Of a stretch of 29,165 nt of DNA, positions 1 to 3,330 are shown piece by piece. The DNA is from a virus (Duplodnaviria > Heunggongvirae > Uroviricota > Caudoviricetes): the IMG/VR virus record IMGVR_UViG_2563366903_000025, positions 1 to 29,165 of that record; one strand, given 5' to 3'. The stretch's first letter is position 1. Each line of letters opens with the position of its first letter. Position numbers and translations under genes: made by a program. The notes beneath the pieces were generated by a model. That model saw nothing but the letters and a program-made list of their open reading frames with translations. It searched no databases and had not been told where the DNA came from.

Positions 1-756
1 CAGACGCTTCAGGTGCGCATCCACCTGACGGATTTCCGCTGCGGTGTTGTCGTAATGCTCTTCCTCCTCCACATCCAGCGTGCGCCCTTCCTCTGCGGCT
101 TTGGTCATGACCTCCTCAAGGGAGGCTGCCAGTGCTGCACGCTTGTTTTCAAAACTTTTAATCTGTTCGCCAATATTCATTATGGTCTTTTCCTTATGAA
201 AAACGGTTGTTGACTGTGCCGCAGCGCCGGCAGAAGATGCGATTTTCACCACCGGTTTCCGGTTGCCGGACGCGGCAGAAAACTGGCGGTCGTAAGATTT
301 AATGGTCCGGATGGTGCATTCCGCATTCGCGGGCACGGTGACGGCAGACACCTCCATCAGTTCCCAGCGCAGAAAATGCAGTCCGCCTCCGTCCAGAAAG
401 GTGTATTCATGGGGACGGAAGCCCACGGACAGCCCCCTGACCAGCCCGGTCTTAATGGCCGCCCAGGCCTCATCCAGCCGGGCAGCCAGTTGCGATGGCA
501 TATCCGGCACGGGCTTCGCCAGTGTTGCCGTGATTTCCAGCCCTTCGCTGACCCGGCGCACCGTACACTGCCCCACCGGGCGGGAATGGTCATGCTGCCA
601 GAGAAACGGGATCGCACTGCCAAACTCCGCGCCCTCCGGCTCCAGGATGTCACCATCCCGATCCGGAGAAGGCGTTGACGCAATCCCGGTGATCACCCGC
701 TCATCCTCACTGAAGGATTTCACCGTCAGCAGGGAGCAGGCCCGTTTAAGAGTCAC
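1..756 (-). CDS. HK97-family prohead protease; reading frame continues without a stop into a major-capsid-like N-terminus (partial, runs off window)
   Basis: Minus-strand frame not in the ORF track because it has no stop in the window. GTG at 756..754 is preceded by AGGAGG. My translation reads VTLKRACSLLTVKSFSEDERVITGIASTPSPDRDGDILEPEGAEF...WQHDHSRP...GLSVGF...VPANAEC, a prohead-protease pattern with His and Ser motifs. An in-frame ATG at 180..178 with an AAGGA RBS starts MNIGEQIKSFENKRAALAASLEEVMTKAAEEGRTLD, which looks like a capsid delta-domain coiled coil. Confidence 0.6.
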   Translation of the reverse strand, partial: MTLKRACSLLTVKSFSEDERVITGIASTPSPDRDGDILEPEGAEFGSAIPFLWQHDHSRPVGQCTVRRVSEGLEITATLAKPVPDMPSQLAARLDEAWAAIKTGLVRGLSVGFRPHEYTFLDGGGLHFLRWELMEVSAVTVPANAECTIRTIKSYDRQFSAASGNRKPVVKIASSAGAAAQSTTVFHKEKTIMNIGEQIKSFENKRAALAASLEEVMTKAAEEGRTLDVEEEEHYDNTAAEIRQVDAHLKRL

Positions 757-819
757 ATCAGCCTCCTGAAAATAAAAAAACCGCCGCAGCGGTCCATGAT
801 GGTTACAGGGTGAACAGGG

Positions 820-2481
820 TTATATGAAAAAAACCGCATATTCTTTCTTTTTCGGCTCCGGATTCAGGGACATCAGGGATACCGCATTGAACAGCGCCAT
901 CAGCGGGTCAATTTTCCCCCGCCCGCTGGCCTGTTTGGTAATAAGGATAGCGTTACCTTTAGGCTCCACCCGGGCATTGCCAACGCACCAGGCCATCAGT
1001 GGCTGACCACCATGCACCAGTACTCCCTCAGCCAGTTTGCGCTCGGTGGTTTTAATGGCACCGCCCAGCTTCCAGCCCTGGCTTATCCCCACCACACTCT
1101 CATCGGGGATCCCGGCTTCCGCCAGTGAATCCAGAATCTGCCCCACGCCTGACGGGTCAATACCGATATGGTCCAGTAACTCAGCCTCATGAATGCGACG
1201 CACATACTCCGCCACTTCCGCCGTGTCATCCCCGACCCGACGGACAATGGTCATATCCCCACAGGCAACAAAATCCTGAAAACGGGCTGCCTCACTTTTT
1301 CGTCTGGCCACCGCGGTTTCATGTGCCCAGGCATGGCCCCAGCCCAGCCATTCGCGGGTCTCCCGGTCACGCCCAATCACATACATCCCCAGCAGATCAT
1401 CCAGCCCTCCGCCGTCAATCCCCACCGTCACCACATCAGCACGCTGCAGAATATCGTCCAGACTGATGCGCCTGCCCTGCTGCTCCCAGAAATCCGCCCC
1501 CGCCCAGCGGTCAGAACGCAGGGCAAGACCAATTTCCACATTGGCGTGTTTTGACATGAAACCGCGAAAAGTCTCTTCACCGGCTTCCCGGGCTTTACGG
1601 TACTCCCGGTACAGAAACGCCTCATCCACCGAATAACCGAGATTCGGATTGACCATGGCGAGGTTTTCCATCAGCAGGTGCTCACCGCTCTCCACCATCT
1701 CCGGCGGATGCTCAAAAATCACCGGCAGAAAGTGCGGATCATGAATTTTGCCGTCACGCACATCCCGGGCGTACTGCAGTTTCTGCCTGAACACCCCGGC
1801 AGGCGGCTCATTCGACTGGGTGGTCGTATACACCACAAACCCTTCCGGGCGGGAGGCAAGGCCGCCTATGGCTTCACGTAACATGTCCTCCGCCTTGTAC
1901 TGTTTGCCAAACAGCCATAACTCATCAATCAGCGTACCCACGGACTTGATACCGGACACCGTATTCGGATCGGCTGCCACCACCTTCAGGGTGGTGTCCG
2001 TCACCCGGTGGGTGATGGTCCGGATATGCGTCTGTACCTGGCAGAGGTCATCCAGATCATCGTCGCGTCGTACCATATCCCGGGCAGGGTTGAAGGCGTT
2101 GGCTGCCACCTCCACGGTCGGGGCCAGAATGGTGTAGCCCGCCGCCTGCCGCCAGTTCAGTAACAGCGCCGTCATCATGATCCCGGCGGCCAGCGTGGAC
2201 TTGCTGTTTTTTTTAGGTATCAGAATGAACACTTCCTTGATATGGCGCACACCGGTCTGCGCATCGTAGGAGCCAAACAGGGCCGCCACCAGGTCAAACA
2301 CCCACTGTGCACAGGACTCCCCGAACGTCGGGCTGCCCGGTGCATCCACAATCCGCAGTTGTTTAAAAATCGCCAGGGCATGTGCGGCCTGCTCCGGGTA
2401 AATCGGAGCCGGAATAATCGACAGCCCCTTTTTCAGGCGTACTGCCCAGTCCGGGCAGGCCGTGCTCCACCCTGGTATCAT
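820..2481 (-). CDS. Terminase large subunit
   Basis: 553 aa ORF with a Walker A-like segment (LIPKKNSKST) and a C-terminal nuclease-like region (GIDPSG). Start overlaps the upstream small-subunit stop (ATGA). Confidence 0.88.
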   Translation of the reverse strand: MIPGWSTACPDWAVRLKKGLSIIPAPIYPEQAAHALAIFKQLRIVDAPGSPTFGESCAQWVFDLVAALFGSYDAQTGVRHIKEVFILIPKKNSKSTLAAGIMMTALLLNWRQAAGYTILAPTVEVAANAFNPARDMVRRDDDLDDLCQVQTHIRTITHRVTDTTLKVVAADPNTVSGIKSVGTLIDELWLFGKQYKAEDMLREAIGGLASRPEGFVVYTTTQSNEPPAGVFRQKLQYARDVRDGKIHDPHFLPVIFEHPPEMVESGEHLLMENLAMVNPNLGYSVDEAFLYREYRKAREAGEETFRGFMSKHANVEIGLALRSDRWAGADFWEQQGRRISLDDILQRADVVTVGIDGGGLDDLLGMYVIGRDRETREWLGWGHAWAHETAVARRKSEAARFQDFVACGDMTIVRRVGDDTAEVAEYVRRIHEAELLDHIGIDPSGVGQILDSLAEAGIPDESVVGISQGWKLGGAIKTTERKLAEGVLVHGGQPLMAWCVGNARVEPKGNAILITKQASGRGKIDPLMALFNAVSLMSLNPEPKKKEYAVFFI

Positions 2482-3041
2482 CCGTTGCCCTCATTATCGT
2501 TATTCACCACCAGGCGGGGTGGTGGTGGCACCGCAAAACGGTTAGCCGCTTTTTTCGCCGCGTCACCTTTTGCCGATTTTTTACCGGCATCCCCTTTTTT
2601 ATGGTGCGTGAACTGTGCCAGTCGCCAGGCCGCATCCAGTGCCAGTTTCGGGTCAATGCTCAGGTTTTCCACCAGGATCCTCCCCATCGCTTTTACCGGA
2701 TCAGGAAGACCGTCTTCCATGTAATCAATACCTGGTAGTGGTGTGAGACTTTGCCGGTCATCAGGCGGCAGTGAAACCGGGGTGTTCTTTTCCGCCGGAG
2801 GGGCTTCCTGATGGCACTCCTCCGTCTGCGTCTTTTTCTGCCGGTAAACAGGAACCTCATCCACCTCCACCGTCTCGCCCTGCTTACGGGCAATAAACGC
2901 GAGCACCTCCGGATCTTTTGCCAGCTGCGAGCCTTTAACCCTGGCGGTCTTCGCCGAATAACCGGCGGCAATGGCTGACGCTGTTTTGTTTTTCCCGGAC
3001 ATGAGCGCCAGCGCAAATTTTCGTTTTTGCGTTGTCAGCAC
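2478..3041 (-). CDS. Terminase small subunit (GTG start at 3041; alternative ATG at 3002)
   Basis: 187 aa. N-terminal HTH-like segment KRKFALALMSGKNKTASAIAAGYSAKTA is typical of P27-type small terminase subunits. Sits immediately upstream of and coupled to the large subunit. AGGAGG precedes the GTG. Confidence 0.7.
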   Translation of the reverse strand: MLTTQKRKFALALMSGKNKTASAIAAGYSAKTARVKGSQLAKDPEVLAFIARKQGETVEVDEVPVYRQKKTQTEECHQEAPPAEKNTPVSLPPDDRQSLTPLPGIDYMEDGLPDPVKAMGRILVENLSIDPKLALDAAWRLAQFTHHKKGDAGKKSAKGDAAKKAANRFAVPPPPRLVVNNDNEGNG

Positions 3042-3330
3042 AGCCTCCTCCCGGGTCCAGAACGCACTCAGCCGGGTATGGTTCAGCCCATTTTTCCCGG
3101 CGCCTCATGCCGCAAATGTTAACTGCTGCCTGGTTAACATTTGCTGAAAAAGCCTGTTAACATTTTTTCCATGCAACAAACTGAATAATAAAGATAAAAA
3201 CCGCAAAAATGCCCGGGCAGCCAGTTAACATGTTAACTGCCCTGAAACGGGAATTTTTTCTCTGCGTGAGACGGGGCGCGGTGTCCGGGACGATCGTTTT
3301 TATCGCCGGATGATCCCCCCCCAGGGCGGG

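Follow-up and report, generated by a model that had tools for sequence, protein, structure and literature searches.

In phage HK97 the prohead protease and the major capsid protein are encoded next to each other by two distinct genes, and the portal gene has its place between the gene for the large terminase subunit (TerL) and that for the protease. In phage lambda (C/Nu3) and the herpesvirus HSV-1 (UL26/UL26.5), an in-frame internal start gives rise to an abundant C-terminal assembly protein alongside a rarer full-length protein that takes the protease into the procapsid. The composite head gene of Gifsy-2 is reportedly about as large as that of Pseudomonas phage MD8 and is said to encode a ClpP-like protease. 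Published work describes HK97 as having no separate scaffolding gene, its scaffold being the N-terminal domain of the capsid protein, and MD8 gp5 as one gene of 693 residues for protease, scaffold and major capsid protein, the protease resembling lambda C (PMC8508860). A single-gene protease-scaffold-capsid arrangement is also attributed to Gifsy-2 (Effantin 2010, as cited in PMC12315714), and for the archaeal virus HFTV1 the nested products gp17/gp17.5 have been documented by ribosome profiling and mass spectrometry (bioRxiv 10.64898/2026.09.13.751334). Here we analyse the left end of IMG/VR virus record IMGVR_UViG_2563366903_000025 (positions 1 to 29,165; this whole stretch of 29,165 nucleotides is called the window below), whose positions 1-756 make up the 5' 40% of one 645-codon head gene from a lambdoid E. 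coli prophage with a head module of the BP-4795/phage 2851 type. The gene joins an HK97-type prohead protease to a capsid protein in one reading frame, and conserved signals at the junction suggest that it may be a nested gene with two protein products.

The minus-strand frame that opens at GTG 756-754 runs to base 1 of the window through 252 codons with zero stops, as a preliminary description of this DNA, made from its letters and open reading frames (ORFs) alone, had reported. Codon 193 of this frame is an ATG (180-178) that opens MNIGEQIKSFENKRAALAASLEEV... and has AAGGA (195-191) ahead of it. The duplex with the anti-Shine-Dalgarno (anti-SD) sequence has an energy of -10.3 kcal/mol at the GTG 756 start; a GTG in this position is confined to the E. 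coli clade, the other relatives having ATG with GGAGG. An out-of-frame ATG (758-756) that overlaps GTG 756-754 is met directly by TGA 755-753 and makes a minimal start-stop ORF. The features of the gene that fall within the window are as follows (aa, amino acid residues; nt, nucleotides).

1..756, minus strand: first 252 codons of the protease-linker-delta-capsid fusion ORF, an open frame that leaves the window at its edge.
754..756, minus strand: GTG start codon of the full-length protein, with AGGAGG at 762-767 and a spacer of 5 nt.
298..615, minus strand: Peptidase_S78 (HK97-family prohead serine protease) domain, aa 48-153, from Pfam.
592-594, minus strand: putative catalytic His55, from conservation in fused homologues.
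427-429, minus strand: putative catalytic Ser110, from conservation in fused homologues.
181..336, minus strand: variable linker, predicted to be disordered, aa 141-192, from the predicted local distance difference test (pLDDT) of AlphaFold2 (AF2) and variability among homologues.
191..195, minus strand: AAGGA, Shine-Dalgarno-like, 10 nt 5' of the internal ATG.
178..180, minus strand: in-frame internal ATG, codon 193, candidate start of a separate delta-capsid protein, from alignment and conservation.
1..180, minus strand: delta-like (scaffolding) helical domain, N-terminal 60 residues, from AF2 helices and profile alignment.

The identification of the protease by the preliminary description proved sound. 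The window protein matches PF04586 Peptidase_S78 over aa 48-153 with 37.1 bits (cut-off 21; E 4.6e-9), and H55 and S110, which we take to be catalytic from knowledge of the family, are invariant in 80 diverse fused homologues (39-53% identity), with E135 nearly so. The invariance of both H55 and S110 makes an active protease probable. AF2 applied to protein P0002 predicted a beta-rich protease domain (aa 6-139, pLDDT ~65-79), a disordered stretch (aa 141-193, pLDDT 24-32) whose linker residues are hypervariable among homologues, and two long helices (195-223 and 229-261, pLDDT 74-82). The input was a 30-sequence alignment and the prediction was poor for the capsid domain (mean pLDDT 45, predicted template modelling score 0.27), and the model was used for the protease, linker and helices only. 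When it was compared with the PDB by Foldseek, the 16 best matches were all herpesvirus assemblin proteases (probability 0.54-0.99), a weak resemblance in which every E value exceeded 1e-3 and the TM-scores were low. For the capsid part, a search of the PDB with a single sequence gave one marginal capsid match and the family profile was needed: built from 80 members, it matches solved capsid proteins (9d9w, 5e-18; 8gta, 2e-10; 5tjt). Profile positions 198-261 align with residues 4-67 of 9gyi_B, a 385-aa 'Major head protein' (E 5.3e-9 for the whole sequence, 1.4e-5 for that stretch), and on the evidence of this alignment with the start of 9gyi_B the helical segment from M193 shares homology with the delta-like N-terminal region of capsid proteins. 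The delta-like domain which had been proposed to open at ATG 180 behind AAGGA thus agrees with the sequence, the predicted helices and the profile alignment.

The capsid part of the gene lies past the window edge and is known from two relatives, phage BP-4795 (locus L001) and a prophage of E. coli SCU-104 (locus L002), the latter 99.1% identical to the window over positions 1-3100. Extension of the sequence leftwards, which the preliminary description had put forward as a check, completes the capsid in these relatives: the fusion ORF has 645 codons in both (L001, 11345-13282; L002, 10345-12282) and encodes a Peptidase_S78 domain (aa 48-153) followed by Phage_capsid (PF05065; aa 386-635, E 5.9e-14). 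The frame does continue into an HK97-fold capsid domain, as had been surmised. In both loci the genes follow the order small terminase subunit (TerS), TerL, fusion gene, 73-codon ORF, portal (PF04860, E 1.8e-81) and head-tail adaptors, and the portal gene is downstream of the capsid gene in loci L003 and L031 as well. This is not the canonical HK97-like order TerL-portal-protease-capsid, there being no portal between TerL and protease. Within the window the TerL stop (820) and the protease GTG are 63 nt apart, close to the 60 bp given earlier, and the gap holds no ORF and hence no portal. That the portal might simply be located downstream had been named as something that would overturn the original reading; this part came true and removes the puzzle of the missing portal, and the fusion itself is unaffected by it.

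The fusion and its gene order are real, already known and very common. The window region is 95% identical to Shiga toxin (Stx)-converting and related lambdoid phages (BP-4795, 2851, Stx2-1717; 94 phage records), and the module is present in about 1,255 of the 5,426 complete E. coli genomes, often in multiple copies. GenBank labels the gene 'putative major head protein/prohead protease', and the 626-position profile of PHROG 617, 'major head protein', matches window aa 1-252 with E 3e-105; PHROGs also holds another family named 'major head and protease protein'. The cluster of the fusion protein at 90% identity has 9,916 member sequences, and homologues of 644-648 aa with 73-78% identity are known from Salmonella, Enterobacter, Klebsiella, Serratia, Pantoea, Kosakonia and other genera. 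Among 1.84 billion cluster representatives searched, 12,567 matched; about 140 of the best 150 representatives (of 50%-identity clusters, 38-54% identity) are fused proteins of 630-680 aa. We examined 22 fused loci at the DNA level, drawn from Enterobacterales, Arsenophonus, Phlomobacter, a Burkholderiales metagenome-assembled genome (MAG) and a GC-rich MAG, and the fusion ORF is intact in all of these loci from many genera. EVP-1, a siphovirus of Symbiopectobacterium, has this module and its DNA is present in purified virus particles (PMC8156552). The same in-frame arrangement, which the preliminary description had suggested looking for in related phages, is thus found widely, and the main correction to that description concerns novelty: annotations of Stx and lambdoid phages already include the arrangement, and comparable fusions have been published.

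The evidence that the junction may also serve as a translation start comes from comparison with unfused relatives and from conservation among the fused ones. Burkholderia phage vB_SBP39 (39% identity) has separate genes for the protease (212 aa) and the capsid protein (444 aa). Its capsid start, MTIAEKIKQL, aligns exactly with MNIGEQIKSF at M193, TAAGGA precedes the ATG, and the protease stop lies 13 nt before it. At a locus in a Burkholderia MAG (L026) the two genes share one frame and are split by a single TAA four codons 5' of the capsid ATG, and five unfused representatives (456-478 aa) start at query residues 193-196. Among the fused representatives, a start-capable residue stands at or within a few residues of the M193 column in 145 of 145 (M 131, V 12, L 2). 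AGGA, GGAG or GAGG lies 5-11 nt before this start in each of the 22 fused loci, and the residues that it encodes differ (KG, KE, QEV, SEP, IGA). Across 596 alignment columns there are three places with an SD-like signal in every sequence; this is one of them, and the other two coincide with conserved Gly-rich motifs. The motif also casts an amino-acid 'shadow', with G/E at 41-43% in positions -4/-3 versus 5-9% at the flanks, and a purine-rich dipeptide occupies it in 93 of 145 representatives against a control mean of 27.5 and a maximum of 38.

The surrounding sequence has the character of an open initiation site. In 18 of the 22 loci the region from -25 to +20 ranks within the 5% least structured, and in 19 of them within the 5% lowest in GC; overall, the site belongs with the least structured and GC-poorest parts of the gene in 18-21 of the 22. 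In the window copy the same region of ATG 180 folds at -3.5 kcal/mol (mean -11.5) with a GC content of 33% versus 58%, which places it within the 3% least structured and the 2% lowest-GC of 767 codon positions, and the anti-SD duplex of AAGGA, at -6.2 kcal/mol, is close to the value for the start of TerL itself (-6.1). The preliminary description had proposed either a fusion that restarts internally or two nested starts, and this proposal finds support in the unfused starts, the conserved start codon, the SD-like motif and the unstructured, AT-rich region. M217 (window 108) was considered as another internal start and rejected: a GAGGAGG stands upstream of it, but with a spacer of only 2 nt and in a structured setting (-13.9 kcal/mol).

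On the strength of these signals we think it probable that two proteins are made from the one frame, a full-length protease-capsid protein and a delta-capsid protein. Initiation at GTG 756 would give the full-length protein, which would co-assemble as a capsid subunit and in this way carry the protease into the procapsid. Internal initiation at ATG 180, directed by AAGGA 195-191, would give the delta-capsid protein alone, and this would make up most of the shell. We infer a ratio in which the protease-capsid product is rare and the capsid product abundant, and a maturation on the pattern of HK97, in which the protease would cut away the linker and the delta domain once assembly is complete. 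By extension, the widespread S78 protease-capsid genes at large appear rather likely to be nested two-product genes, in which a minority of subunits carries the protease (together with an AAA ATPase in some lineages) at the N-terminus and is packaged by co-assembly. We found no report of a nested-start mechanism for S78-capsid fusions in the literature, of which our coverage is incomplete, and found no proteomics or ribosome profiling there for heads of the BP-4795 type.

Several observations weigh against this reading. The internal SD is of moderate strength, -4.3 to -7.1 kcal/mol and in the top 5-15% of windows within each gene. The SD of the full-length start is far stronger, and because of this and the ATG start in most relatives the full-length protein may be abundant rather than rare. 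An unstructured site is absent from three GC-rich loci (L025, L030, L031). The capsid-core Met columns M515 and M588 are conserved just as well, and conservation of a Met is therefore not diagnostic alone. Finally, a shell made only of 645-aa subunits would, by our estimate, be crowded but perhaps physically possible, a T=7 procapsid then containing roughly 13 MDa, comparable to P22's scaffold load. The strong SD and frequent ATG of the full-length start and the estimated fit of the extra mass in a T=7 shell, together with the continuous and conserved ORF, also favour a rival, the single polyprotein: each subunit would be the 645-aa protease-delta-capsid protein (1:1), the protease would free itself and the delta domain after assembly, and the internal ATG and SD would be a leftover of the ancestral gene boundary or be kept for some other reason. 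The precedents point the same way, in that Gifsy-2 (as cited in PMC12315714) and MD8 are described, in the accounts that we draw on, as a single composite protease-scaffold-capsid gene. We nevertheless regard the polyprotein as a doubtful, if serious, possibility. A leftover signal should decay across lineages that are 38-54% identical and have unalignable linkers, but here the SD-like motif persists, as do the start codon and the AT-rich open region; the share of M, V and L at the start column (90/8/1.4%) resembles bacterial start-codon usage; and forms of about 1,100 aa that contain an AAA domain would hardly assemble at 1:1.

The nested-start reading has two further competitors, both of which seem to us far less credible. 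A programmed frameshift or a termination close to the T-run GTTTTTCATAAGG would separate protease and capsid protein during translation, the protease then ending alone at an out-of-frame TAA (196-194) or at the TAA over the ATG (182-180). Both alternative frames do reach a TAA within 20 nt of the junction, close to a T5 run at 199-203, but a canonical X XXY YYZ heptamer is missing from the zero frame, and only the E. coli clade has the T-run and the two out-of-frame stops; the linker DNA of the other fused loci is quite different, and what is conserved is the SD and start codon and not a slippery site. We rejected frameshifting on the lack of a canonical heptamer and of conservation outside the E. 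coli clade, and hold it to be very improbable. It is more improbable still that the fusion results from an error of sequencing or assembly, or represents the pseudogene of a decaying prophage that has lost a stop. The window is a prophage, and as little as one stop codon sets some unfused relatives apart from it. Set against this, the 645-codon ORF is intact in phages deposited complete (BP-4795, 2851), in EVP-1, in at least 1,242 complete E. coli genomes and, across genera, in thousands of database members, and the putative catalytic residues are invariant. The possibility of an error near the junction, which the preliminary description had raised against its own reading, therefore falls away with the intact ORFs of the 22 loci and the 9,916-member cluster.

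Larger fusions extend the same frame at its N-terminal side. In at least 25 clusters an AAA ATPase domain (PF00004) precedes the S78 protease and the capsid protein in one ORF of about 1,070-1,150 aa (for example P0123, P0132 and P0271-P0293; at the DNA level, L030 8001-11201 and L031 8001-11357). These proteins retain the M193-equivalent Met and the SD, and the fusion in L031 occupies the same slot X in the order TerS-TerL-X-small ORF-portal. By a rough estimate, 415 copies of an internal extension of about 79 kDa would nearly fill a T=7 procapsid; because so many extensions would hardly fit in such a shell, a separately made capsid protein seems necessary in the triple fusions. We are aware of no account of what an AAA ATPase joined to a prohead protease and a capsid protein does. 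Many other proteins pair AAA and S78 domains with different C-terminal regions. In L030 (1-13700) the AAA-protease-capsid gene comes after genes for a relaxase (TrwC type), a coupling protein (TraG/VirD4 type) and an ATPase (T2SSE type), an HNH gene and a portal gene follow it, and no terminase was found within 8 kb upstream; at this locus a conjugative element and a capsid-forming one could be combined in a hybrid. A further protein, P0001 from E. coli (1,079 aa), has a TerL ATPase domain joined to the protease-capsid fusion, and since it is a single member on a single contig, it probably reflects an artefact (a frameshift or an assembly fault) and not a true triple fusion.

The genes next to the fusion were also surveyed. 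Upstream of it on the same strand, the window contains the following features.

768..795, minus strand: GC hairpin (778-795) followed by a T-run (768-777), intrinsic-terminator-like, in the gap between TerL and the protease.
820..2481, minus strand: terminase large subunit gene, an ORF with TerL_ATPase and TerL_nuclease domains.
2478..3041, minus strand: terminase small subunit gene, an ORF with a Terminase_2 domain.

The hairpin and T-run are the sole content of the TerL-protease gap. They lie inside the late operon, some 10 nt upstream of the fusion gene's SD, and recur in the same position in relatives from many genera, with loops that vary (TCCG, GCAT, TTCG, CACG and others) and some stem changes that are compensatory (CCCGC/GCGGG versus ACCGC/GCGGT). 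The hairpin could be a terminator of transcription that is not Q-modified, or a stabiliser of the mRNA. Downstream of the capsid gene, a small ORF of 58-88 aa (PHROG 829, unknown function) stands before the portal throughout the module family (L002 12327-12548; L003 3944-4120; L031 11424-11690). The portal region itself (L002 12494-15240; L001 13494-16240) is called 'frameshifted' in the SCU-104 annotation and carries two 'portal protein' coding sequences in that of BP-4795. It consists of two ORFs that overlap by ATGA and are both covered by PHROG 2271 (859 positions); the first (454 aa) has PF04860, and in the second (461 aa) no Pfam domain is clear. This second part is missing in EVP-1 and in the Burkholderia phage. 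The pair could be two real genes, a decayed fusion or the outcome of a programmed shift. The SCU-104 prophage matches the window over the head/terminase end only, with ORF coordinates that diverge farther along, which fits lambdoid mosaicism. No tRNA genes were found across window 1-29165, and its closest phage relatives are Stx-converting phages.

For a head module as common in E. coli and Stx phages as this one, the fusion and the displaced portal are ordinary and add little. The one part with some novelty is the nested-start hypothesis, which can be tested cheaply. If it is correct, two in-frame translation starts would set the stoichiometry of protease to capsid protein, and this would explain how a fused gene can supply some 415 capsid subunits with far fewer proteases, how fused and unfused forms interconvert so easily through a single stop codon, and how the larger AAA-protease-capsid fusions assemble. 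The principle of lambda C/Nu3 and of UL26/UL26.5 would then extend from the scaffold to the capsid protein itself. There would also be a gain for annotation, as one gene in more than one-fifth of complete E. coli genomes and in Shiga-toxin phages would have two products.

Among known systems, the nearest are the same gene: BP-4795 ORF56 and its equivalents in phages 2851 and Stx2-1717 and in related E. coli prophages share 95-99.5% protein identity, a length of 645 aa and the order TerS-TerL-fusion-73 aa ORF-portal, and there is no difference of substance between ORF56 and the window copy, which ends at codon 252. A step further away, vB_SBP39 gp3/gp4 are 39% identical proteins in an identical order (TerS-TerL-protease-capsid-small ORF-portal), encoded by two genes and not by one as here. 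HK97 gp4/gp5 belong to the same families as the two halves of the fusion (Peptidase_S78; Phage_capsid PF05065), and HK97 shares with it the placing of the scaffold in the N-terminal domain of the capsid protein. Its genes are separate, with the portal before the protease, whereas here one ORF encodes both proteins and the portal comes after the capsid gene. In being one uninterrupted ORF the gene belongs with the protease-scaffold-capsid fusions, a standard annotation class in actinobacteriophages; those come from other hosts and sequence families, and in actinobacteriophage cluster AU the order is described as the usual terminase-portal-protease-scaffold-capsid, unlike that seen here. MD8 and Gifsy-2 differ in that their protease is not of the S78 type and their central scaffold is about 200 residues long, compared with a delta domain of about 100 residues here. 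The conserved in-frame internal start, with its ribosome-binding site at the boundary of the C-terminal product, aligns the gene with nested genes as well. In lambda, HSV-1 and HFTV1 the nested product is a scaffold only and the capsid gene is separate; here, to judge from the start signals, it would be the capsid protein with its delta domain. The mechanism that we propose thus combines two known ideas, single-gene fusion and nested starts.

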